Source of the DNA: Candidatus Zixiibacteriota bacterium
Lineage (GTDB): Bacteria; Zixibacteria; MSB-5A5; CAIYYT01
NCBI GenBank assembly: GCA_040235515.1
Contig: JBECKX010000058.1
Location: forward strand, 1-15,575
Direction: 5' to 3'
DNA length: 15,575 nt
The notes beneath the pieces are model-generated. The model saw nothing but the letters and a program-made list of their open reading frames with translations. It had not been told where the DNA came from and did no database searches. Positions 1,069 through 12,503 of this stretch are shown here, one piece after another; position 1 is the stretch's first letter, and every line of letters begins with the position of its first letter. Both the position numbers and the translations under genes were made by a program.

Positions 1069-1303
1069 GGTAATGACCATCCTTTCTCGAGTGGTAATAG
1101 ATTTGCTGTAATGAAGCGGACAAAAATGTTGTTTGTCAAGCTCTACGCCGCGCTGCCTGACAGAAAGTGACAGTCAAAGTAGCATGAATGTGATTGACGT
1201 GTGGATTGAGGGGTTGGGCTACGACGCTCTAGTGCGTTTGAGAATGCAGCGCGTAGCTGATCGCCATGAGTGAGTCATACTTACGCAGCCGGTATCCAAC
1301 ATG

Positions 1304-1345
1304 CTCCCCTCGCCCGCTGGAGGGAGAGGGGCCGGGGGTGAGGGT
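1304..1345. repeat. Simple REP-like palindrome (minus strand ACCCTCACCCCCGG-CCCCTCTCCC...GAGGGGAG; 'PSPPAPLPPAGEG' type)
   Basis: Hairpin CCCCTC..GAGGGG followed by CCGGGGGTGAGGGT. It has the same scaffold as the arms of the composite element. Confidence 0.8.
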
Positions 1346-1411
1346 GGATCAACCCTGCCATAAACTGGTGACCCACACGTTGCCGCATTAATCACATACC
1401 ACGGGTAAACC

Positions 1412-1489
1412 TGTAGGGGCACGCTGTGCGTGCCCGCTTCCGCTCATGGCGGAGCCGGGAGCTGGGGGCATGTGCAACATGCCCCTACA
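1412..1489. repeat. GTAG-family REP doublet (REPIN-like)
   Basis: TGTAG-GGGCACGC-tgt-GCGTGCCC and the inverted partner GGGCATGT-gca-ACATGCCC-CTACA. GTAG plus a hairpin is the canonical RAYT-associated REP layout. Confidence 0.8.
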
Positions 1490-1813
1490 AGGATAGGTGG
1501 CGTAGGTTTGGGACTGGGCCGGAGAGTCTCGAACCCACCACTCGCACCTCTGGCAAGCATGGCTATGGAACTGGATGTTACATCCCCAATCGGCGTGTAG
1601 CAACGCAAACCCCTCTTGAGAGGGGTCGGGCACGGATATCCCGCTCACGCGGGATTGAAGTGACCGGGGGTGTGTGGGAACTATCGTATCAACACCACCA
1701 CAAATTAGTGACCCAGATGTCGCTGCATTAATCGTAGGCCGCAGGCGAACCTATTGGGGCACACGCAACTTCCACAATCATACACCGTACAGTATACTTC
1801 AGGAGGTAATGCA

Positions 1814-1972
1814 ATGAAGACTCGCAATCTCGGCTATCTGGGTTTCTTAGGCTTGCTTGGGATACTCGGAACGCTGGGGGCTACGACCGACAATACCGCA
1901 TTGTACGCGTTCTATGGTTTCTTCGGGTTTTACGGCTTCTTTGGATTCTTTGGCCGATCAGAAGAAAAATAG
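1814..1972 (+). CDS. Small Gly/Phe-rich membrane protein, DUF3796-like (52 aa)
   Basis: AGGAGG at 1801-1806 and ATG at 1814. Sequence MKTRNLGYLGFLGLLGILG...FYGFFGFYGFFGFF has repeated Gxx hydrophobic triplets. Confidence 0.75.
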   Translation: MKTRNLGYLGFLGLLGILGTLGATTDNTALYAFYGFFGFYGFFGFFGRSEEK

Positions 1973-2010
1973 CCGACGCCACCTAACTCCAATACAGCGG
2001 ACTTCCAAAC

Positions 2011-2043
2011 AAAAGAGCCCCCGGCTCAGTCTACCGGGGGCTC
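2011..2043 (-). terminator. Rho-independent terminator between convergent genes
   Basis: Perfect 10-bp stem GAGCCCCCGG/CCGGGGGCTC followed by TTTTGTTT on the minus strand. Confidence 0.85.
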
Positions 2044-2071
2044 ATTCAGGTTAGTTGCAGGGAGACGTTTA

Positions 2072-2659
2072 CTAACTTATGCCATACTTCGAGAAATGGT
2101 AGATCGGGACCTGCGGATTGAAGAGTCCGCTGCGTGCCTCGATTTCCCACTTGTTGGTTTGAGGGTTGAAGTAGAAAAGTACTGCGGCAAGTCGATTGAG
2201 CGCAGCCTGGTTCGGTTGCACATACAGCGGATAGTTGAAAGTGGTTCCATCGGGACCACAGTCAAGTTCCCAGAACTTGCCGAACGGCGACTGACGTTCC
2301 GTGATATGAACAGTCAGTTCGATATACTTCTTCACTGCGCCATACGGCAGCGAGAAGCCAAGTTTTTCGTCGCCATGCACGACATCCACCTGCACCCCAT
2401 ACGGGCTGGCAGGAATCGTGATCGTTGTGTCGAAAACTACCGGGCATAGCTCGAGGCCCAGAATCGTCACACCTTGTGCACCTGATTCGCCGGCTGGGGC
2501 TGTCTGATTCAGCCAGTCAAGCGTCTGCTGTTCAACGTCAGGTGCCGGTGAGACGGCATTTGACGAACATCCCCCAATAATCAGAGCTACCACCAATGAG
2601 GCGATCATTGTCAGGAAGCTTACCGGAACGTACCATCGCTTGGGTATCAGAGTCGTCAT
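2072..2659 (-). CDS. Putative lipoprotein with ZU5-like beta domain
   Basis: SD GAGGAGG before ATG 2659. Hydrophobic stretch plus lipobox IGGC, a GPDGTTFNYP motif and C-terminal HFS. Confidence 0.7.
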   Translation of the reverse strand: MTTLIPKRWYVPVSFLTMIASLVVALIIGGCSSNAVSPAPDVEQQTLDWLNQTAPAGESGAQGVTILGLELCPVVFDTTITIPASPYGVQVDVVHGDEKLGFSLPYGAVKKYIELTVHITERQSPFGKFWELDCGPDGTTFNYPLYVQPNQAALNRLAAVLFYFNPQTNKWEIEARSGLFNPQVPIYHFSKYGIS

Positions 2660-3028
2660 AATTCCTCCTCCTGCCGACTGAAGGCAGGGACTAACATACG
2701 AAATGATTCTGGGGAGCATATTGTGCAACCATCTTGCCGAATTGTTCCATCGCGACACAGCATTTTCAACACAGCCTTAACTGACTGTAACTACGACGGT
2801 TACAGACTGAGGCCCTGTTCGCATCTTGAACGCAGGATTTGAACAGTTAAAAAAAGCGTGGAAAATGATAGGGGGAAGTCAATAGGGAGTGGGGGGCACA
2901 CCCACTCCCGGAAGGGAATCTTTACACCATTGGTCGTGGGATACCAGTCAGGTAGGTGCGAATTCATTCGCACATCAGAATCGCCCCAACAACTCAAAAC
3001 GATGGCTGAATCAACCCGGCCTGACCGA

Positions 3029-3252
3029 ACACACCCCCGCCGTGATGTTTCCGCTGGCACGAAACCATCCCGTCGACCCCTCTCAAGAGGGGTTGGGCTA
3101 CGACGCTCTGAACCATGATGCACGAATCCGAACCACGAGTCACGCTGAGATTGATTCCCGAATATTCTCCGCGCGAGAACCGCTAACCCCTATCGAGAGG
3201 GGTCGGGCGCGGTATTCCCGCACATGCGGGAATGACGTGACCGGGGGTGTGT
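3029..3252. mobile_element. Gene-free 224-bp composite palindromic element (copy 1; MITE/REPIN-like)
   Basis: 11-bp TIR ACACACCCCCG/CGGGGGTGTGT, nodes at 3077-3092 and 3187-3202, and a 94-bp spacer. Collinear with 6520-6743 and the same length. Confidence 0.85.
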
Positions 3253-3370
3253 GTGGATTGGAGAATCTACCTAAAAATGGATAGTGACATGAATCGCTGC
3301 ATAAATCACAACCCAAACGTTCGATACGTTTGGATATCAATCAATATCGCAGGGGAAGCTACTCGAAAGC

Positions 3371-3396
3371 TGGATTCCCGCCTGCGCGGGAATGAC
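3371..3396. repeat. dRS3-like palindrome ATTCCC-N8-GGGAAT-GAC
   Basis: TGG-ATTCCC-GCCTGCGC-GGGAAT-GAC matches the Neisseria dRS3 core pattern. Confidence 0.75.
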
Positions 3397-3432
3397 GGTG
3401 AGGATTCTCCTCACCTATCGGCGTAGCAGAGA

Positions 3433-3488
3433 TGTAGGTCAAGCTCACTTGGAACCGCACTGTCGGGTTTCAAGGAAACCCGACCTGC
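3433..3488. repeat. Degenerate GTAG-family REP doublet
   Basis: TGTAGGTC at 3433. Perfect 10-bp hairpin GTCGGGTTTC-aag-GAAACCCGAC followed by CTGC (GCAG on the minus strand). Confidence 0.6.
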
Positions 3489-3519
3489 GGCTTCTCGCCA
3501 TGTCGAAGCGCACGCCCCC

Positions 3520-3768
3520 CTACTTCCTAAACTTCTCGTCCCATTTCTCGCGGAGTTTGGCATTGAGGCGGTCGGAGAGACCTTTGGGGAGTTCCTCGCA
3601 TTGGCCGTTGTCGCGGCAAATCTTAACAGTCATCTTGAGGGAATCGACCATCAGCTTGCAGTTGTCGCACTGGCCGATATGTTTCTCGATCTCGGCGCAA
3701 AGTTCCGGGTCGAGTTCACCATCGAGGTATTCGTTCAGACCCTCAATATAATCAGCGCACTTTTTCAC
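3520..3768 (-). CDS. Zinc-binding anti-sigma factor (zf-HC2/ZAS)
   Basis: YLDGEL and HxxxCxxC (HIGQCDNC). GTG start at 3768 with GAGG SD, overlapping the end of the sigma gene. Confidence 0.92.
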   Translation of the reverse strand: MKKCADYIEGLNEYLDGELDPELCAEIEKHIGQCDNCKLMVDSLKMTVKICRDNGQCEELPKGLSDRLNAKLREKWDEKFRK

Positions 3769-4351
3769 CGGGATCCTCAATTCGTAATACCTTATCCAGT
3801 TTCTCTCGCAGCGCCAACCGCGCCCGCAGGATACGTGACTTGGTGGCGGCTTCCGTTAACCCGATCGACCTGGCGATCTCCTTGACCGACATCTCCTCGT
3901 GATAACGCAGCATGAACGGCACCGAATACTCGGCGCGCATCTCGTCGAGCGCTTCGTTAATCACCTGAGCTATTTCAGCATCCTCCATCACCTCGTGCGG
4001 ATTGCGCCACTGCGACAGTTTGTGACTGTGTTCGCTGTTGCCATGGCCACCCGCGGGCAGGAGGTCATCTATCGATTTCAAATCGGCGCGTTTTTCTTTG
4101 GCCAGGAAGGCCCGCCCCTGGTTCAACGCTATTGCGTAAAGCCAGGTTCCGAATGAGCTGTCGCCGCGAAACTGATCGATCTTATCGATCGCTTTCAGGA
4201 GGGTATCCTGAAGCACATCCTCGGCGTCGTGCTCATTGCCCGTAAGGCGCCGCGCCAGCGCAAAGAGCTGGCGTTCATAGTTTTTTACGAGCTGGGCGAA
4301 GGCGTCGTAATCTCCAGCCTGCGCCTGCTGAACAAGCTTTCTTTCATCCAT
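3752..4351 (-). CDS. ECF RNA polymerase sigma factor
   Basis: Region 2 (DAEDVLQDT, FGTWLYAIALN) and region 4 HTH (SVKEIA...KSRILRAR). Coupled to a ZAS anti-sigma gene. Confidence 0.95.
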   Translation of the reverse strand: MDERKLVQQAQAGDYDAFAQLVKNYERQLFALARRLTGNEHDAEDVLQDTLLKAIDKIDQFRGDSSFGTWLYAIALNQGRAFLAKEKRADLKSIDDLLPAGGHGNSEHSHKLSQWRNPHEVMEDAEIAQVINEALDEMRAEYSVPFMLRYHEEMSVKEIARSIGLTEAATKSRILRARLALREKLDKVLRIEDPGEKVR

Positions 4352-4434
4352 TGGATTCGAATATAGGGAGAATGATTCAGAAAAATAAGAAAAAAGCGGG
4401 GTGTGGCTTGCCGTGCCGACAAGCAGGCGAGGGA

Positions 4435-5457
4435 TTACAGTTTTACCAGATCGGTTTCAGGTCCCATCATGATCGTAAACTCGCGCAGCAGCTTCTTGTC
4501 GAATCCACCCTTCATGTTGTGCATGATCTTGAGGGCGGGGTAGGTATCGATTGCAGCCTGGTACACACGTTCCGTCGTTAGGGCATCGAAGACATCGGCG
4601 ATTGCCACGATCTTGCTGAAGGGGTGCTGATCCTTCTCGCTGGTGCCGAGCGGATAGCCCGAGCCGTCGAGGCGCTCATGGTGCTGTAGTACCGGATAGT
4701 ACGATTCCTTCTCGATCATGTCGGTTTCTTTGAGGATCTCACCGCCCCAGCCGGGGTGCTTCTTCATAATCTCAAATTCAGAACGATTGAGCGCAGTGCG
4801 CTTGGTAAGAATCCGTTCCGGGACCTTGCTCTTGCCGACATCGTGCAACAGCGCACCTGTACCCAGCGTCTTGAGCAGCTCCATATCGTTGATTTCGAGC
4901 TGTCGTGCCAGCGCCAGGGAGAAGGTGCAGACATTTACCGAGTGGGTGTAAGTATAGTAGTTAAAGGATGTAATCTTCATCAGGCTGACAAATGCTTCGC
5001 GCCCCTTGAGGATGTAGGAAATCGTGTTATCCACCATCTTCTGCGAGCGTTTGATATTCTCCGGATAGGTCGGATTGGCGAGGACATCCTTCACGAGAGC
5101 CTTGGAGGCTTCATAGAGGATACCGGCTTTCTTCTCTTCCGCCAGGGTCGGATCAGACATGATTTCCGGAAGGGCTTCCTCGACATAGCGCTGGTAAGCT
5201 TGTTTCGAATCAGATTTGATATAGATCTGGCTGACATTGTTTTCCTGCAGCTTGGAGAGCGAGGCAAGGGTAAATGGCAGCGCCGCCGAGCGATAGAGAA
5301 TCAGTTCGGTGCCGGTATAAATGTAGAGGTCGAAATTAAGAACCTTATCGACGATCAGCGAATCGACAGGGATTTGCAGATACGCCGGCTGTTGGTCTTC
5401 TTCACGCCTCTTAACCAGGTGATCCGAGAGTACAACCATCATCTGCTCTATCGACAA
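4435..5457 (-). CDS. HD-GYP domain c-di-GMP phosphodiesterase (start uncertain)
   Basis: HSVNV, LHDVGK, HHERLDGSGYP and IADVFDALT motifs. Confidence 0.93.
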   Translation of the reverse strand: MSIEQMMVVLSDHLVKRREEDQQPAYLQIPVDSLIVDKVLNFDLYIYTGTELILYRSAALPFTLASLSKLQENNVSQIYIKSDSKQAYQRYVEEALPEIMSDPTLAEEKKAGILYEASKALVKDVLANPTYPENIKRSQKMVDNTISYILKGREAFVSLMKITSFNYYTYTHSVNVCTFSLALARQLEINDMELLKTLGTGALLHDVGKSKVPERILTKRTALNRSEFEIMKKHPGWGGEILKETDMIEKESYYPVLQHHERLDGSGYPLGTSEKDQHPFSKIVAIADVFDALTTERVYQAAIDTYPALKIMHNMKGGFDKKLLREFTIMMGPETDLVKL

Positions 5458-5638: not shown

Positions 5639-6259
5639 CTAGCGCCCGTAACTTTTCACCAGCATCATCACCGATTGGAGGGAGGTGCTGATATTGGTGA
5701 GGGCTTTACTGTAGCGCTTGAGCAGTTCTGAGTACTGCCAGCGCATCGAGAAAGCCTTCTCAGGGAACTGGAAGGTATCAAGCAGTAGCTTGCGGTGGAT
5801 TTCGTCGATGTAACGAACTACATCGAACGGGTAATCAGTCAGGTCATCCTCGTTGGTATCGCCCTTGCTGAGGCGGTCGCGGTAGGCTTCGACCTTCTCG
5901 AGCACGACGGTACCGAAGCACCAGGGGGTCATCACGACGCCGAAGTTATTGGCTTCGGTGTAGAAGTCGTAAAGGGTGCGCAACAGAACTTCGAGCACTT
6001 TCTTGCGGGCTATGAGGTAGGCCCGCAGCTCGATCTGGTGGGGGGTAAGATCGGCGAGTTTGGCTTTGGTGTCCTTGAGATCTGCCAGCGCGCGCTGTTC
6101 GACCTGCTCCAGGAAACCATAGTAATCATCGAGATAGATTTTCACATTCTCACTGAGCGTGTAGATGAAGAAGCCGCCATCATCCTTCTTGACACGTGGT
6201 TCGACGCTCTTGGCGAAGCGCTCGGTCGGGAATCCTCGTTTCATTTCCTTGGCAATCAT
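5639..6259 (-). CDS. Hypothetical protein (206 aa, predicted helical)
   Basis: SD GGAAGGAG upstream of ATG 6259 and GC-rich third codon positions. The ORF-track extension to 6613 runs through repeats. Confidence 0.8.
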   Translation of the reverse strand: MIAKEMKRGFPTERFAKSVEPRVKKDDGGFFIYTLSENVKIYLDDYYGFLEQVEQRALADLKDTKAKLADLTPHQIELRAYLIARKKVLEVLLRTLYDFYTEANNFGVVMTPWCFGTVVLEKVEAYRDRLSKGDTNEDDLTDYPFDVVRYIDEIHRKLLLDTFQFPEKAFSMRWQYSELLKRYSKALTNISTSLQSVMMLVKSYGR

Positions 6260-6486
6260 CGTTGTGTCACTCCTTCCCTCTCTGAAGTTGCAAAGGAGTG
6301 AAATGCAACGGGTGTGCCGAAGTGAGTGGGTGTGCGTTTGAGAGCATGCTCCGGGACAGGTTGAGATGCGAGATGGTGTTAGGTCATGTGCATGAATTGA
6401 ACAGCGCGCGCAGGGGATTTCAGAGTGTGATCTTGGTTGCAGAACTGGGATGTTGAGGTATGCAAAGTGGCAGCGGAGGGACGGTT

Positions 6487-6511
6487 GGGTGCCCCACCGC
6501 TTTGCGGTGGG
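6487..6511. repeat. GGGTG-headed REP-like hairpin
   Basis: GGGTGC-CCCACCGC-ttt-GCGGTGGG, a perfect 8-bp stem located 8 bp before composite copy 2. Confidence 0.5.
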
Positions 6512-6519
6512 CTGTCGGG

Positions 6520-6743
6520 ACACACCCCCGCCGTGATGTTTCCGCTGGCGCGGAATTATCCCGTCGACCCCTCTCAAGAGGCGTTGGGCTGCGACGTAAC
6601 TACGATAGAGCAAAAGCTTGATAGAAATCGTCGCGATGAGATCGGTGCCTGAATAATAACAACGCGAGAAACGCTAACCCCTCTTGAGAGGGGTCGGGCG
6701 CGGAAATCCCGCGATAGCGGGAGAAACGTGACCGGGGGTGTGT
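6520..6743. mobile_element. 224-bp composite palindromic element (copy 2), abutting the DUF559 stop codon
   Basis: TIR, nodes 6568-6583 and 6678-6693, spacer 6584-6677 (94 bp). Its last base overlaps the TAA of the nuclease. Confidence 0.88.
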
Positions 6744-7117
6744 TAAACGCTTCTCCGATTCTCGATAATCCAACTAACTATCGCATCCACAACCCCTTGA
6801 ATGTTATCCATGACTTCCCGCTCTAGAAACCGAATGACAGTCAAACCTCGGCTTTGCAGCCAGGCCTCTCGATCTCGGTCGTAGTCGAGGCGATCATTGT
6901 GGGATGAGCCATCTACCTCAATGACCAACTCCAGTTCCTGGCAGATGAAATCCACGATAAATGTTCCGACCGGTCGTTGACGATGAAAATCGTAGCCCAT
7001 GATCTGTCGGCCCCTTAGGTATCTCCACAGTCTTTGCTCGGCAGGAGTGGGATTTTCCCGAAGCTTGCGTGCGCGTGATTCTGTGAGCCTCGAGTAAATG
7101 ATTATCCGCCTTTTCAT
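6743..7117 (-). CDS. DUF559 family endonuclease (Vsr-like PD-(D/E)XK fold)
   Basis: ARKLRENPTPAEQRLW, FHRQRP, FIVDF, LVIEVDGSSH, DRDREAWL and VIRF motifs are typical of DUF559. Confidence 0.93.
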   Translation of the reverse strand: MKRRIIIYSRLTESRARKLRENPTPAEQRLWRYLRGRQIMGYDFHRQRPVGTFIVDFICQELELVIEVDGSSHNDRLDYDRDREAWLQSRGLTVIRFLEREVMDNIQGVVDAIVSWIIENRRSV

Positions 7118-7123
7118 ATGGAC

Positions 7124-7152
7124 ATGATGTGATGAAGGAGCACTCGTGTCAA
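7124..7152 (-). promoter_or_regulatory. Putative sigma70 promoter of the DUF559 gene (leaderless)
   Basis: TTGACA (7152-7147), 17 nt, CATCAT (7129-7124), 6 nt, ATG. No SD present. Confidence 0.45.
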
Positions 7153-7172
7153 TCGCATTGAGTTAGCAAGTC

Positions 7173-7508
7173 ACACACCCCCGCCGTGATGTTTCCGCTG
7201 GCGCGAAATCATCCCGTCGACCCCTCTCGAGAGGGGTTGGGCTGCGACGTACCGGTGATAGAGCCGATGCTTGACAGATATTGTCGCGATGAGATCGGTG
7301 CCTGAATAATAACAACGCGAGAAACGCTAACCCCCCTCTCGAGCGGCGTTGGGCTGCGACGTAACTACGATAGAGCAAAAGCTTGATAGAAATCTTCGCG
7401 ATCAAATCGGTAATTGAATAGTGACAGCGCAAGAAACGCTAACCCCTCTTGAGAGGGGTCGGGCGCGGAACTTCCGCGATAGCGGGAGGAACGTGACCGG
7501 GGGTGTGT
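7173..7508. mobile_element. 336-bp composite palindromic element (copy 3) with an extra node+spacer unit
   Basis: TIR, three nodes (7221-7236, 7331-7348, 7443-7458) and two 94-bp spacers. Confidence 0.88.
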
Positions 7509-7530
7509 TCCCCGCATCCCCCCACTCTCC

Positions 7531-7559
7531 TTGCCCGGACGCATAAACCTCTCTATATT
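7531..7559 (+). promoter_or_regulatory. Putative sigma70 promoter for ridA-osmC
   Basis: TTGCCC-N17-TATATT, 43 nt upstream of the ATG. Confidence 0.45.
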
Positions 7560-7602
7560 CCTCCACAAATAGCACGAACGCTTATGCACGGAAGGAATAG
7601 CA

Positions 7603-7998
7603 ATGAGCAAGCAAGTCGTCTCGACCGATCATGCCCCGGCCGCCCTGGGACCATATTCACAGGCAATCATCCGTAAGAACTGCACCAACCTGGTATTCTG
7701 TTCCGGGCAGGTGCCGATCGACCCCGAAGTCGGCGGAATCAAAGCGGAGGGCATCACCGAACAAACTCACCAGGTGTTCAAGAACATCCAGGCGGTCCTC
7801 GCGGCCGCCGGCTCGAGTCTCGACAAAGTCGTCAAAGCCACCGTATTCCTGAAAGATATGAATCACTTTCAGGAGATGAACCAAGTTTACGGTGAGTACT
7901 TCAAGGGTGATTTCCCGGCTCGCTCGGCGATCCAGGTCGCGCGACTGCCGCTCGACGCCCTGGTGGAAATCGAAGTAATCGCGTACGTCGGAGAGTGA
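7603..7998 (+). CDS. ridA: RidA/YjgF/YER057c enamine-imine deaminase
   Basis: APAALGPYSQA, SGQVP, PARS and LVEIE motifs. Confidence 0.93.
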   Translation: MSKQVVSTDHAPAALGPYSQAIIRKNCTNLVFCSGQVPIDPEVGGIKAEGITEQTHQVFKNIQAVLAAAGSSLDKVVKATVFLKDMNHFQEMNQVYGEYFKGDFPARSAIQVARLPLDALVEIEVIAYVGE

Positions 7999-8032: not shown

Positions 8033-8446
8033 ATGATACCGATTACGGTTGACTGGCAAGGGGGCAAGCATTTTGTCGCGCACAATATGGAAAATGCCGC
8101 TATCCACTTCGATGCCCGCATCAAAGGCGGCGGCACCGGTACGCGCGCCAATCCGCTTGACCACCTGCTGGCTGCATCAGGTGTCTGTTCCGCGATGGAT
8201 GTCGTCGACATCCTTAAAAAGATGCGACTCAAACTTGACTCCTTCAAGCTCGAGATCGAAGGCGAACAGCGGGAGGAGTACCCGCGCTATTTTACTTCGA
8301 TTAAGATTCGTTACATCCTCAAGGGCGAAGGCCTCGACCGCGCCAGGGTAGAACGCGCCGTTGACCTGTCACAGAACAAGTATTGTTCAGTTATTGCGAC
8401 ATTCCGCCCTGAGTGCAAGGTGATCTCGGAGATAGTGATTGAGTAG
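8033..8446 (+). CDS. OsmC/Ohr family protein (YhfA-like)
   Basis: Two conserved Cys in GVCSAMDVV and KYCSV. GAGG SD upstream. Confidence 0.92.
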   Translation: MIPITVDWQGGKHFVAHNMENAAIHFDARIKGGGTGTRANPLDHLLAASGVCSAMDVVDILKKMRLKLDSFKLEIEGEQREEYPRYFTSIKIRYILKGEGLDRARVERAVDLSQNKYCSVIATFRPECKVISEIVIE

Positions 8447-8775: not shown

Positions 8776-9909
8776 TTATTGATGTGTCTTCTCTGCAATC
8801 AGATCAACCTGACTTGACGGAAGCACGATCGGATTGTCATTGAGATACTCAATAGAGGCCTTGAGTATGCTCTCAATGTACTTTGGATTGTGAATTCCGT
8901 GAGAGCGATCTTCTTGGTAACTGACCCAGTTCCAAGCCGCACCGGCCTGTCTGCGGGTGATCGTTACAGATTTGAATTGATTTCCTGAGGCGCGGATTGA
9001 AGCAAGCAAAACGCCAAGAGAATCCGCCAGGTCATCATACTCACTCTGTGCACCCTCAACTTCTCCATCACCGTCAAAATCACTGAATGTTCCCGGCGTA
9101 TCGAAGGTGGAAAGCGGCGGGTCAGTCTCCGTATTACCGTGGCACAACTCGTTGTTGCACTGCCCTACAAGGGTGTACTCCGAACCATCATGAGCTTCAA
9201 AGCGCATGTTGAAGCTATGTCCTCCGATGTTGTATCCGTCATGAGCTTGAGGATTACCCATATGGCAGCCGATACAGGCTTCTCTCGGACCAGTAGCGTG
9301 CGTTGAACTTACCTTTACGTAACCAGGGAAGTCCTCAAACAGGTGGGTTCCCTGCAGAATATCAGCTTGCGGTCCGTGATGTGGGCCGAAACGCCCACTG
9401 ATTGACACGGTCTCAGTGTTAGGAACTGCACTCGCGAGAGGTGTTCTTACGTGATGGCAGTTTGCACAAAGGTTTGCATCGCCATGATCAAAAACCGTTC
9501 CATCAAGCAAAGTGAACGGCCCACCGGCGCGCACGGTCATATCTCCCCGCGCATGCGGTGCATGGCAAGTGAAGCAGTGGATCGCGCTGACTGTGCTGTA
9601 TGGCGGTTCAATTTCGCCAGTGCCAATAAAATCAAGGAAGCCCTGCTGGTCATGGCACATTGTGCAATCGGCTCCATCACCACGGTTGGTGTAGTCCACA
9701 CTCGTGCCGGATGCATGGAGCGAATTTCTCCACTCGCCTTCTGCCTGAAGCAGCGCGCCGTCAAGTGCATCCTCACCATGACATGCAAAGCAACCGGCTA
9801 ACGATTGATCGCCACTGGCCGCTTCATTGACGATCTTGCGTTCGCAACCCATCACGAACACCATTGCTGCGATCAGCAGCAATACCGCCAAAATTCTGAG
9901 TCCTTTCAT
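8776..9909 (-). CDS. Multiheme c-type cytochrome lipoprotein (5 CXXCH + 1 CX4CH), putative outer-surface component
   Basis: GGAGG SD, lipobox VMGC, hemes CFACH, CTMCH, CFTCH, CANCH, CIGCH and CNNELCH. C-terminal GAAWN...DRSHGIHNPKY helical domain. Confidence 0.9.
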   Translation of the reverse strand: MKGLRILAVLLLIAAMVFVMGCERKIVNEAASGDQSLAGCFACHGEDALDGALLQAEGEWRNSLHASGTSVDYTNRGDGADCTMCHDQQGFLDFIGTGEIEPPYSTVSAIHCFTCHAPHARGDMTVRAGGPFTLLDGTVFDHGDANLCANCHHVRTPLASAVPNTETVSISGRFGPHHGPQADILQGTHLFEDFPGYVKVSSTHATGPREACIGCHMGNPQAHDGYNIGGHSFNMRFEAHDGSEYTLVGQCNNELCHGNTETDPPLSTFDTPGTFSDFDGDGEVEGAQSEYDDLADSLGVLLASIRASGNQFKSVTITRRQAGAAWNWVSYQEDRSHGIHNPKYIESILKASIEYLNDNPIVLPSSQVDLIAEKTHQ

Positions 9910-9922
9910 CTTTAACCTCCTC

Positions 9923-11482
9923 TTAGAAGCTAAACGCATCAATTAAGTTCACTTCAACAATGTTGGCTGTATAGTACTGGTTGTCGAAATACAGCAGGTC
10001 ATCGAAATTGAAGGCGCTGTATTTCACCTCAAACTTGATATTTTCGTAAATCCGATAAACGATCGAACACTTCACGTTGAAATGCTCCACGTCGAGGTCC
10101 TCTTTGCTGCGGTAATACTGGGCACCGGCACTTAAGGTCACCTTGTCGCGATACTCGATGGTCGTGAAGTCCCCGTAAACGAGGTGATCATTGAATTCGA
10201 AGATTCCCTCGGCATTCTCGTACTTACCCATTCCGTAAGCATAACCGGCGGTGAGCCAGCCATACTTCTCAAGGGTAAGCGAGCCGTCGACACTGACGCG
10301 ATTGCGGTCGACCTTGCTGCCGATGTCTTCATTCTTGCGGATGCTGCCATCCCACTTGACGCGGAATGTGCCGACATCCGGTTTGCGGAAGCGAACCTGC
10401 CCGCTGAACCGCTGGCGCTTCTCCTCACCAACCAGCCGGACACCATCTTCGATGTCCTCGCTGCGCTGGCCATCCTCACCTCGGATTTCCCAGTAAGGAT
10501 GCGGCTTCACCCACGCCGAGACGTAGAAGGAATTGGCGCGGATTTCATCTTCAAAATCATCATTAACATCAAACTGATATCCGACCGTCGCCCCCCAAAG
10601 CCTCGGGTCGTTGTAGCTGACATAACCCGCATGACTCATGTTGTCGGTCGCGACAAAATCTGAGTCAGAGGCTGTGCGGTCGAGCATTCCGATATACTTC
10701 ACCGAGAAGTTGTGCGGCAGTTCGACCAAACCGCCACCCCAGCCGCGATTCGATCTGATTCCGAATCCGGTGGCATCTTCCTCGGTCACGTAGCGACGGA
10801 ATCCGCCCAGCACGTGCAGGAACTCGTAGTTCGGGATCGTGATGTAGGCATCACTGCGGAACTCGAACCGCTTCTGATCGCGCATTGGATCAAGGTCGTC
10901 GGTAAACTTGGCGCCGCGGTATTCGACTCGTACCATCGAATTCTCGTGGCTGAAGCTCACGCCCGCATTATAGAAATTGCGTTTGTAATCGACTTCGGTC
11001 GGCTCCGGTGTACTGGTCGGATTGAAGAGATCAACCGTGTTGCCGGTACGCTGCATGAATCCACCGCCACCATAAATCTCAATATACTCGATCGGCCGGA
11101 CCGAGAGCTGACCCTTGGTGGTCTGGCGGCGAGTGAACTTGTCGCCATCAAATGAATAGACGCGACGGAACTTATCATGCGACAGGCGCAGGTCGAAGAT
11201 GCCACGCTTGAAGAGTGAGGCATTGAGGTTGCGGTCGTTGCGCACGATGTTACGCAGGTCGGCACGCGCGACGATTCCGTTGTCAAAACGATAGCGGAAT
11301 CCCTCGAGAGAGAGCGCGGCGCCCTCGTAAACATTAAATGTCGAATGGTTCATCGACTGGTTGCCATCCTGGTCGAGGTAGGTGTAACCCACCTTGAGAT
11401 CACCGCTACCGCTGCCGGCGATAGCTGATCCGGTCAACAGCAACGCTGCCAGGGCAACCATGAATATCATAAGCTTCTTCAT
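9923..11482 (-). CDS. Outer-membrane beta-barrel porin, MtrB/PioB-like
   Basis: AGGAGG SD, Sec signal peptide, alternating amphipathic strands and terminal Phe. Sits between two multiheme cytochromes. Confidence 0.8.
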   Translation of the reverse strand: MKKLMIFMVALAALLLTGSAIAGSGSGDLKVGYTYLDQDGNQSMNHSTFNVYEGAALSLEGFRYRFDNGIVARADLRNIVRNDRNLNASLFKRGIFDLRLSHDKFRRVYSFDGDKFTRRQTTKGQLSVRPIEYIEIYGGGGFMQRTGNTVDLFNPTSTPEPTEVDYKRNFYNAGVSFSHENSMVRVEYRGAKFTDDLDPMRDQKRFEFRSDAYITIPNYEFLHVLGGFRRYVTEEDATGFGIRSNRGWGGGLVELPHNFSVKYIGMLDRTASDSDFVATDNMSHAGYVSYNDPRLWGATVGYQFDVNDDFEDEIRANSFYVSAWVKPHPYWEIRGEDGQRSEDIEDGVRLVGEEKRQRFSGQVRFRKPDVGTFRVKWDGSIRKNEDIGSKVDRNRVSVDGSLTLEKYGWLTAGYAYGMGKYENAEGIFEFNDHLVYGDFTTIEYRDKVTLSAGAQYYRSKEDLDVEHFNVKCSIVYRIYENIKFEVKYSAFNFDDLLYFDNQYYTANIVEVNLIDAFSF

Positions 11483-11492
11483 CACTTCCTCC

Positions 11493-12431
11493 TTAGCGAA
11501 CGTCGCCGTGACAGCCCGACTGATAACAGTTGGCGTAGAAGTTGACATTCAACATCGGATCGAGGAAGAGTGAGTTGTCATTCGATCCATGGATATCGGT
11601 ATGGCAGTTGACACAATCGACCTTGGTAGCCATACCGGAGTGTGCTGTCAGATGCCCCGGAGGAATGCCATGACACTGCATGCAAACTCCGTTACCGGGC
11701 TGGTTGAGCAGGCTTTCGTTCGGAGATCCGTGCGGGTTGTGGCACTCAACGCAACCGCCACCATCAACCAGGTGGTTGTATGTCACCGGGTGTTCAAACA
11801 GATGCGGTCCGGCATAATCGGAGTGGCACTCCTGGCAGGTCCAGTCGAATCCGGTTGCCAGCTGGTGGTCCTTGCGGTTGTCCTGCGAATGGCAATCGAG
11901 ACACTGAATATTGCCCGATTCCAGCGGATGGAACGAACGCTGCGCGAATTGCGCCTTAACGTTGGTGTGGCAACCCTGGCAAAGCTCGGTTTGATCTTCA
12001 ACCAGCAATCCCTCATGCAGGTTGTCGTGGATCTTGTGGCAGGTAAGACAGTCGACCTGCGAACGCGAATGCGGATCGGTTGAGACCATTCTCGCCTGGT
12101 GCGGGTTCATGTGGCAGCTGCCGCAAAGCTCCGCCTGGACCAGAAACGCCAGCGTGTCGGGCATGGTCGGATGAGACTCGGTCGGGTCTTCAAGGTGCTG
12201 CTCGAAATTCGTGTGGCACCCGATGCAGCTGACTTGCATTCCCTGCGTCATCCCCGATGTCAGCTCATGCTTGGTTCCGATGAGGCCCTCCGCGACGTCG
12301 TCGTGGCAGTCAAGACACGCTGCTCCATCTCCCTGCGCCAGAGCCGGCACAGCAAAACAGAGCAGAAATGCGACTATCAACGACAGCCGTGTGAGAATCC
12401 TCCTCATCTCACTATTTATCTTATTGTTCAT
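11493..12431 (-). CDS. MtrA/DmsE-family decaheme cytochrome c with extra C-terminal CX4CH
   Basis: Signal peptide ending ALA, ten CXXCH motifs, FEHP/CHNPHGS/IHGSN family motifs, and a terminal CYQSGCH. Confidence 0.9.
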   Translation of the reverse strand: MNNKINSEMRRILTRLSLIVAFLLCFAVPALAQGDGAACLDCHDDVAEGLIGTKHELTSGMTQGMQVSCIGCHTNFEQHLEDPTESHPTMPDTLAFLVQAELCGSCHMNPHQARMVSTDPHSRSQVDCLTCHKIHDNLHEGLLVEDQTELCQGCHTNVKAQFAQRSFHPLESGNIQCLDCHSQDNRKDHQLATGFDWTCQECHSDYAGPHLFEHPVTYNHLVDGGGCVECHNPHGSPNESLLNQPGNGVCMQCHGIPPGHLTAHSGMATKVDCVNCHTDIHGSNDNSLFLDPMLNVNFYANCYQSGCHGDVR

Positions 12432-12503
12432 ACCAACCTCTTCTATGAGCAAAAAGTCCATTTTTCGGTCAAAAGATAAACTCGCACGTTAACATCGACT
12501 TTC

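Follow-up and report, generated by a model that had tools for sequence, protein, structure and literature searches.

Why should a small gene of the DUF559 family lie exactly between two inverted copies of a dispersed, structured repeat? The question is raised by the 15,575-nucleotide (nt) stretch analyzed here (the window), which is contig JBECKX010000058.1 of assembly GCA_040235515.1 from a Candidatus Zixiibacteriota bacterium. The window is contig C52 of the source genome, referred to as G000 (3.59 Mb, 218 contigs, 55% G+C); relatives are numbered from G001. The gene encodes a protein of 124 amino acids (aa), P0001, and has on each side a ~67-nt repeat unit with the signature of an intrastrand DNA triplex motif. 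Similar pairs bracket DUF559 genes in other genomes, and the repeat subtype follows the protein clade. We put at roughly one half the probability that gene and repeats form a selfish nuclease-plus-cognate-repeat system, comparable to RAYT/REPIN systems or to free-standing homing endonucleases but built on a different enzyme and a different DNA structure; the binding, cutting and copying that this involves are steps that we infer.

A DUF559 gene bracketed by inverted repeat units

The basic repeat is a ~67-nt unit made up of ACACACCCC, a variable hairpin and a palindrome (CCCCTCTnnAGAGGGG). Copies were agreed by three methods, namely repeat finding, blastn against the source genome and an nhmmer profile iterated on that genome, which returned 35, 52, 58 and then 61 matches. 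Seven of the 61 units fall within the window. Compared with one another, the units share a sharp 5' edge (any nucleotide, then ACACACCCC) and a near-invariant palindrome (CCCCTCTCAAGAGGGG) but vary in the middle, and two end-types can be distinguished (...GGGGTT+GGGCTACG and ...GGGGAATT). A covariance model, R1, was built from 18 units, and a strict finder was used that accepts only an exact hairpin with an exact mirror third arm. The features of the locus and its relatives in the window are as follows.

6743..7117, minus strand: DUF559 gene, open reading frame (ORF) of 124 aa (P0001), Pfam PF04480
6676..6744, minus strand: unit directly 3' of the gene, an arm of composite A (nhmmer E 4e-12; R1 80.2 bits; strict finder 6678-6741)
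7173..7238, plus strand: unit directly 5' of the gene, an arm of composite B (nhmmer E 8e-14; R1 76.9 bits; strict finder 7175-7236)
7124..7152, minus strand: promoter-like site TTGACA-17 nt-CATCAT in the 55-nt spacer (10/12 matches)
6520..6585, plus strand: outer unit of composite A (blastn, nhmmer, R1)
6586..6675, no strand: centre module of composite A, ~90 nt (GGGCTGCGACG...CGTCGCGA...), found only in the window (repeat finding, blastn)
7239..7440, no strand: centre module of composite B (~90-nt centre), a tandem duplicate with a 112-nt period and copies at 7221 and 7333
7441..7509, minus strand: outer unit of composite B (nhmmer, R1, strict finder)
3028..3252: gene-free composite with a plus-strand unit (3028-3094), a centre and a minus-strand unit (3185-3252) (nhmmer, R1)
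1608..1675, minus strand: solo unit (repeat finding, blastn, nhmmer, R1)
1208-1230: 23-nt centre fragment (blastn)

Together with the inverted units on either side, the gene makes up a compact cassette of about 0.77 kb (6676-7238). Read in the orientation of the gene, the order is reverse unit, 55-nt spacer, gene and forward unit, with ACACACCCC of the latter starting at the stop codon. The TAA stop (6745-6743) abuts or overlaps the ACACACCCC end by 1-2 nt, and the other unit lies 55-56 nt before the ATG at 7117. A first-pass annotation of this DNA had described a DUF559 gene with the same composite repeat on both sides, touching the stop codon and set back from the start, and this description is upheld by the agreement of repeat finding, blastn and nhmmer. 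In the unit at 6676..6744 the G-rich, triplex-capable strand is the plus strand (CCCCTCT-TG-AGAGGGG-41 nt-GGGGTGT) and the ACACACCCC end abuts the stop codon. The unit at 7173..7238 also has its ACACACCCC end toward the gene, and its triplex-capable strand is the minus strand, which is the coding strand of the gene. The gene-bearing form thus has ACACACCCC ends toward the gene and palindromes outside, whereas in gene-free composites the order is reversed and the palindromes point inward. Three promoter-like sites were identified in the region (0.7 expected), and a GATTGACA box is also present upstream of a homologue (L002) in the same-genus genome G001.

The dispersed entity is neither the composite palindrome that had been envisaged as REPIN-like nor a plain REP hairpin. 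Genome-wide blastn confines the 224-nt composite to the window (6520-6743, 7173-7508 with its centre duplicated, and 3029-3252), and what is dispersed is the ~67-nt triplex-type unit. The two gene-free relatives proposed in the first-pass annotation fared differently: that at 3029-3252 is a composite (78% identity to composite A over 224 nt by blastn), whereas 1208-1675 resolves into one unit (1599-1675, 84% identity) and the 23-nt centre fragment at 1208-1230, with other repeats between them. Further hairpin modules lie beside units (GTAGGGGCAC..., CCCACCGCnnnnGCGGTGGG and GCGGTGTACG...CACCGC; window positions 1412-1489, 1348-1422/1688-1762 and 6485-6510, and many unit flanks genome-wide). 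Since these modules recur beside units, the intergenic repeats are mosaics resembling bacterial interspersed mosaic elements. Rfam and tRNA scans returned nothing at the repeat, and no RNA family accounts for it.

P0001 matches PF04480 over residues 13-115 (E 1.3e-34, 118.8 bits, cut-off 20.6). The NCBIfam model NF007294, that of E. coli YcjD, also matches (E 1.8e-27, 95.7 bits, below its equivalog cut-off of 218), and the name that NCBIfam provides is only 'DUF559 domain-containing protein'. For the AlphaFold (AF2) model of P0001 (pLDDT 86.6), the nearest Foldseek matches are 3HRL (E 1.5e-7), then the catalytic domain of I-Bth0305I (3R3P, E 1.9e-4) and Vsr (1CW0/1VSR); a sequence search of the PDB gave 3HRL as its only match (phmmer E 4.8e-21). 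Ten residues are invariant in 33 aligned sequences (E27, W31, R46, Q47, F57, E67, D69, G70, H73 and R83) and D56 is present in at least 90% of them. By comparison with the family, the conserved D56, E67, D69 and H73 are probably catalytic. The modelled fold is Vsr-like PD-(D/E)XK, and fold and putative active site are consistent with a nuclease.

The triplex-type unit and its pairing with DUF559 clades

In class II triplex motifs, a single strand supplies all three arms: pyrimidine at the 5' end, then purine, and a reverse-Hoogsteen arm at the 3' end (Holder 2015, PMC4666352). On the G-rich strand of the unit, CCCCTCT-nn-AGAGGGG-(loop)-GGGGTGT, the pyrimidine arm comes first, followed by the purine arm and, as the third, its mirror image. 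In the window family G stands opposite G and T opposite A, which is the class II order, and both flanks of the gene have it (CCCCTCT-2-AGAGGGG-39/41-GGGGTGT). The mirror relationship of purine and third arm holds in every repeat subtype (at least four), with G opposite G and A opposite A or T. The strict finder returned 84 matches in the genome and one in a shuffled genome. We saw no solitary hairpin footprints of subtype A in G000, where 54 of 57 CCCCTCYnnRGAGGGG palindromes have a third arm within 75 nt and at least two of the other three are degenerate units.

Loop 1 measures 2-4 nt. Loop 2 measures 21-41 nt and folds as a hairpin, in contrast to the 1-6 nt of published motifs and of the ITxF loop rule; the ITxF search rules, as quoted, would miss the window family for this reason. 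The same subtype occurs in the relative G006 with a 3-nt loop 2. Parsing succeeded for 58 of the 61 units, among which 56 loop 2 sequences are distinct and the loop 2 hairpin has a median of 12 bp. Its median energy is -9.25 kcal/mol compared to -3.95 kcal/mol in shuffles, and z is below -2 in 39/58 units. Pairing is kept while sequence drifts, as would be expected if the third arm must be held beside the palindrome. We conclude that the unit bears the class II signature of BoxC/PIT/TM intrastrand triplex motifs but carries a hairpin in its second loop; folding is predicted from sequence.

Resemblance to the BoxC/PIT/TM(ECO) motifs, as the main text of Holder 2015 (PMC4666352) describes them, extends from arm order (pyrimidine, purine and a mirror third arm rich in G/T or G/A) to genomic habit, as both are multicopy and G/C-rich and occur as singles and inverted pairs. 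The window family differs in its 7-nt arms (CCCCTCT/AGAGGGG/GGGGTGT) with T opposite A, and its units do not fit the TMECO consensus (CCCTCNCCC N3-6 GGGNGAGGG N3 GGGNGAGGG). That consensus is fitted by the other motif family of G000, with 24 pattern matches. Only two motif families are present, and the strict matches comprise 51 CCCCTCT/GGGGTGT copies and 33 variants of a BoxC/TMECO-like core (CCCCTCTCCC/GGGGTGAGGG). The genome has exactly two DUF559 genes, at C52 and at C145:2104-2406. The C52 gene is flanked by the CCCCTCT/GGGGTGT family and the C145 gene by the BoxC-core family, of which about 30 other copies are present; the flanks of the C145 gene are among the 24 pattern matches.

When 41 genomes of the class were searched with P0001, 23 proved to contain small homologues. 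The Pfam model found the same small genes and four other matches, of which two fall in open reading frames some 1,600 aa long. We took 36 loci from the 23 genomes with about 1.5 kb per side, leaving out G014:C27 as a duplicate of G014:C25. (C25 and C27 present one DUF559 locus twice, with identical scores and parallel coordinates, and are probably a duplicated contig.) Directly beside the closest homologues, R1 finds units arranged inside-out as in the window, including at all three genes of G001. In the flanks of distant homologues there are no R1 matches, and reading of these flanks revealed other triplex-type motifs. In clade B the motif is CCCCCTT-AGCA-AAGGGGG-TTA-GGGGGTT, and the TAA stop of the gene is loop 2 of the downstream motif. 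Clade C flanks are of the BoxC type, and further variants such as CCCCTCCTT/AAGGAGGGG/GGGGAGGTT occur. The arrangement of reverse unit, gene and forward unit with ACACACCCC ends at start and stop codons is present in G000 and at all three clade A genes of G001; the pattern also occurs in G020, G007 and G016, and partially in G014 and G013.

A strict class II motif lies within 250 nt at 34 of the 36 DUF559 loci, and the remaining two have long-loop R1 matches; with arms of at least 7 nt, 33/36 loci are matched. Motif density is 3.63/kb within about 250-290 nt of the gene ends (76 motifs in 20,952 bp), 0.19/kb farther out at the same loci (16 in 86,332 bp) and 0.023/kb genome-wide. This enrichment beside DUF559 genes, about 19-fold over the far flanks, is what the first-pass annotation proposed to test, as is a shared phylogeny of protein and repeat. 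The pairing recurs in relatives, and the repeat subtype tracks the protein clade. Maximum-likelihood analysis of the 36 proteins places every one of the 11 genes that have subtype A flanks in a single clade (97/92), and the four subtype labels need four changes (minimum 3; shuffled mean 18.8; 0/200 shuffles as low). The tree match alone says little, since related genes share flanks by descent. More telling are the six genomes with genes of two or three clades (G000, G006, G007, G015, G019 and G020), in which 13 of 13 genes lie in their own subtype.

These counts leave little room for the idea that an abundant intergenic repeat came by chance to flank an ordinary small gene at both ends. Repeats do cluster locally in the window (7/61 units in 15.6 kb), but bracketing recurs at 34/36 loci in 23 genomes with a subtype match and with about 19-fold enrichment over far flanks of the same loci, so that coincidence is already contradicted and we give it almost no weight.

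Across the 41 genomes, gene and motif are distributed as follows.

Clade A: gene in 9, with motifs found by R1 in 8 of those and the short-loop form in the gene flanks of G006; motifs without cognate gene in 6 (9-21 copies each); neither in 26
Clade B: gene in 7, all 7 with motifs; motifs without cognate gene in 4; neither in 30
Clade C: gene in 11, all 11 with motifs (each at least 5); motifs without cognate gene in 12; neither in 18

A gene of a given clade is therefore always accompanied by its motif, and motifs often occur without the gene. The clade B gene was found in 0/30 genomes lacking subtype B motifs, and a reversed-pattern control for the subtype B and C counts gave 0 everywhere. 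Some gene absences may be gaps, since these are draft assemblies; the second gene of G000 itself is on a 3.6-kb contig. A clade B DUF559 gene in G007 (L033, G007:C1:415706-419041) has G in place of D56 and six subtype B motifs within about 1.4 kb, and may be an inactive copy in a motif cluster.

Outside the phylum, a P0001 search of named genomes returned two loci, in a Syntrophobacteraceae and a Bacteroidales metagenome-assembled genome (MAG), and both have flanking motifs. The Bacteroidales locus has a short hairpin in loop 2, as in the window family. At the Syntrophobacteraceae locus (L071), DUF559-like coding continues past the stop in another frame, and the gene may be frameshifted or partly duplicated. 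In Escherichia coli K-12, the 3' end of ycjD falls within a degenerate motif (CCCTCTCCC-TGAAAGA-GCGAGGGGG), and a TMECO motif (CCCTCGCCCC-TCT-GGGGAGAGGG-TTA-GGGTGAGGGG) lies about 170 nt downstream, with a second, partial copy of the ycjD 3' end before it; no motif was found upstream. The partial copy is a near-copy of ~45 nt, about 40-100 nt downstream of ycjD and between gene and TMECO (L057, NC_000913.3:1351000-1352300), and looks like the remnant of an earlier cassette end. In lacking an upstream motif, the E. coli arrangement differs from that of the window gene, which has a unit on either side.

Occupied and unoccupied sites, and known systems

The genes around the DUF559 gene are ordinary according to a domain scan of the window.

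1-1080: recA
3752-4351: extracytoplasmic function (ECF) sigma factor gene
4435-5457: HD-domain gene
ending at 5639: hypothetical gene
7603-7998: ridA
8033-8446: OsmC-like gene
8776-12461: multihaem cytochrome cluster with MtrB-like porin

The last of these comprises three adjacent minus-strand genes. One encodes a multihaem cytochrome in which CXXCH motifs are doubled; the products of the other two, of 541 aa and 388 aa, weakly match MtrB/PioB porins and MtrC/MtrF-like proteins, respectively. From their sequences, the three look like a porin-cytochrome electron conduit. Collinearity of the window with G001 is broken at four places (ranges listed: 1200-3640, 4400-4435 and 6493-7591), and three of the four breaks hold repeat units (1608-1675, 3028-3252 and 6520-7509). 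Triplex motifs have been linked to rearrangement in published work, and the position of these breaks agrees with that link without being a test of it.

The first-pass annotation suggested looking for an empty site between a 206-aa gene and ridA, and no clean one was found: the locus is rearranged relative to G001, G006 and G007, in which ridA is placed on the far side of the HD gene, and nothing cassette-like follows the 206-aa gene in G001. The cassettes of G000 and G001 are at different chromosomal places, the three of G001 being elsewhere. One of these (G001 C49) maps to a site in G000 (C121) that has two direct units in a 379-nt duplication and no gene, although global alignment is uninformative there; the flanks of another (G001 C54) are 6.4 kb apart in G000. 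At a clade A site in genus g3 only the right flank is syntenic. No unit is present there in G003, G017 or G014, and in G011 the only resemblance is a string of 8 nt (ACACACCC), possibly due to chance, again with synteny on one flank. Three public sequencing runs from one study gave low-depth, fragmentary contigs without joints and are uninformative on insertion polymorphism.

Clade B provides a clearer orthologous site, located between two convergent genes. It is filled in G003 and G018, where the allele consists of hairpin, third arm, gene, inverted third arm and inverted hairpin. G016 retains the 3' gene end and the right motif only. G011 has only ATTCCCCCTT-AGCA-AAGGGGGAAT, and G020 has ATTCCCCCTT-TGCT-AAGGGGGAAC, which is the G011 hairpin with its loop flipped; a decayed hairpin remains in G017 and G014. 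The gene-less G011 and G020 alleles are what joining the two hairpins via one or the other arm produces. Judged from their sequences, these alleles fit equally well with two independent precise losses or with insertion beside a pre-existing hairpin.

Among known elements, a close architectural parallel is the REP/REPIN system, in which a small RAYT gene (HUH, Y1 type) is flanked by inverted dispersed repeats, the presumed substrate of its product, the repeats outnumber the gene and repeat type matches enzyme clade. The DUF559 cassette shares the small gene flanked by an inverted, dispersed, structured repeat, and the match of repeat and clade. It differs in the enzyme, a Vsr-like PD-(D/E)XK hydrolase with no Y1_Tnp domain in the cassette, and in the third mirror arm of the repeat. 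Since DUF559 lacks covalent-intermediate chemistry, any copying must rely on host repair. We considered and rejected RAYT/IS200 as the driver: the genome has a single Y1_Tnp-like ORF, which scores 22.4 bits (below the cut-off of 23), is on another contig (C169) and has its own, different palindrome. The triplex-type repeat is enriched beside DUF559 genes and does not track a RAYT/IS200 gene, so that the refuting observations named in the first-pass annotation fail to overturn its idea. The C169 ORF is a sub-threshold IS200-like ORF of 221 aa (C169:21739-22404; L058:1340-2005) with a palindrome, CCCCAGCCCnnGGGCTGGGG, in seven genome copies, and a 24-nt perfect palindrome, GGTACCCCAGCCCTTGGGCTGGGG, recurs in its 5' part and just past its stop. 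ORF and palindrome are possibly a small RAYT/REP pair, unrelated to the triplex-type units.

The nearest functionally characterized fold match to P0001 is I-Bth0305I (PDB 3R3P; TM-score 0.78 normalized to the target), and the E-x-D-x3-H-x-D motif is kept. I-Bth0305I is encoded inside a phage intron and has extra DNA-binding parts, whereas P0001 is free-standing, with dispersed repeats in its flanks. The DUF559 gene is not in an intron or intein, and the gene-less alleles of clade B have one hairpin versus two in filled alleles; we know of no unique homing site for it. Members of the same family as P0001 include 3HRL (Neisseria gonorrhoeae NGO0050) and E. coli YcjD, and neither record assigns a function. 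Compared with insertion sequences (IS) and miniature inverted-repeat transposable elements (MITEs), the cassette has terminal inverted repeats in the form of the ~67-nt units around the gene. There is no direct duplication beside the 61 units and no DDE, serine or tyrosine transposase domain in the cassette scan. The first-pass annotation was correct on both counts, as no target-site duplication is visible on comparison of the units and no DDE or HUH domain was found in any of the 17 larger window ORFs scanned.

Explanations for the pairing and their consequences

If the cassette is a selfish system, the nuclease would recognize the folded form of its own repeat subtype and would cut beside the folded repeat. 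Repair of the break, by homing-like gene conversion or template switching, could then duplicate the cassette, or just the repeat, elsewhere in the genome. The first-pass annotation supposed that DUF559 would nick the hairpin and would spread autonomous and non-autonomous copies. We infer that the repeat DNA folds as a triplex in the cell.

Several observations weigh against this interpretation. The main cautions are the genomes with motifs and no gene, the old divergence of paralogues and the lack of joining chemistry. Subtype C motifs occur without a cognate gene in G003 (39), G017 (30, with no DUF559 gene at all) and G013 (29). Identity of clade A paralogues to P0001 is only 44-57%, and many cassettes occupy sites that are orthologous between species, so that movement, if any, must be rare. 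A 124-aa PD-(D/E)XK hydrolase cannot perform strand transfer alone. There was no clean empty allele for the window cassette or for clade A, orthologous sites being rearranged or differently occupied, and no visible target-site duplication at repeat copies. In G031 the nearest units are oriented oppositely, and related genomes are non-independent samples. As for folding, one E. coli site lacked protection from dimethyl sulfate (DMS) in vivo, as reported in the main text of Holder 2015 (PMC4666352).

The strongest competitor, which we nevertheless regard as improbable, is that DUF559 is a host caretaker. It would be a structure-specific repair nuclease that processes replication-stalling triplex or hairpin repeats for the cell, with the repeats spreading by other means and the gene coming to lie among them through regulation or recombination hot spots. 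The relationship of the fold to the repair nuclease Vsr, the persistence of motifs without the gene and the vertical inheritance of many cassettes at the same site across species (e.g., L035/L036 and L050/L051) are all in keeping with such a role, as is the linkage of triplex motifs to genomic instability (Holder 2015, PMC4666352). It leaves unexplained the strict symmetric bracketing with third-arm ends abutting start and stop codons, the different genomic positions in congeners, the polymorphism of filled and single-hairpin sites, and the restriction of each paralogue within one genome to its own subtype (13/13).

Somewhat less probable still is that the repeats are the ends or recombination sites of an enzyme acting in trans, with DUF559 as cargo that co-diverges with the repeat family. 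This would account for abundant motif families without cognate DUF559, e.g., the 30 copies in G017, a genome with no DUF559 gene, and for the inability of a small hydrolase to join DNA. The cassette has no other gene, however, and no transposase or integrase family accompanies the motifs in the window; the only Y1-like ORF has a different palindrome, and it would be a strange accident for one cargo family to accompany every subtype and to recur in three phyla. Holder 2015 likewise found no mobility functions near the E. coli sites and states that the origin of the motifs 'remains unclear' (PMC4666352).

A regulatory role is unlikely. In that case the flanking units would be operators, insulators or terminators of the DUF559 gene and the dispersed copies its binding-site regulon, which would suit the promoter-like site between the upstream unit and the ATG, the terminator-like score of one unit and the match of subtype to clade, as specific binding could produce it. 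The catalytic residues are conserved, however, which points to a DUF559 protein that is more than a DNA binder, and neither the site polymorphism nor the swings in copy number (0 to 63 motifs per genome) are explained. PIT elements, moreover, had no promoter or terminator activity in earlier work cited by Holder 2015 (PMC4666352).

The selfish nuclease-plus-repeat interpretation can be extended beyond the window, although we hold this extension only tentatively and consider it rather doubtful. DUF559 nucleases might be the missing mobilizing enzymes of BoxC/PIT/TM repeats. The 0.45-0.8 kb cassettes would then be a new class of autonomous selfish element, whose ends are read as folded three-stranded DNA rather than as plain sequence or hairpin, and the solo motifs would be non-autonomous offspring and the cause of rearrangements at such sites. 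Holder 2015 (PMC4666352) names no partner enzyme for BoxC/TM motifs in its main text, in contrast to the DUF559 proteins proposed here; that text has no matches for ycjD, fabI, nuclease or endonuclease, although its supplementary flanking-gene tables may list ycjD. Full-text literature searching, with subscription-only papers outside its coverage, returned no paper whose listing or opening abstract lines link DUF559 to these repeats.

Two puzzles meet at this locus. Knowledge of the BoxC/PIT/TM repeats, which occur in E. coli and many other bacteria, dates back to the 1990s, and to our knowledge they have no known origin, function or partner protein. DUF559 is very widespread and its structure has been solved, and we know of no substrate for it. 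The tie between each DUF559 clade and its own repeat subtype offers one testable answer for both, and E. coli K-12, with ycjD and 23 TMECO sites, is a ready model. If the nuclease does read a folded triplex or hairpin, this would represent a mode of target recognition new to selfish DNA, and a possible source of structure-specific nucleases.

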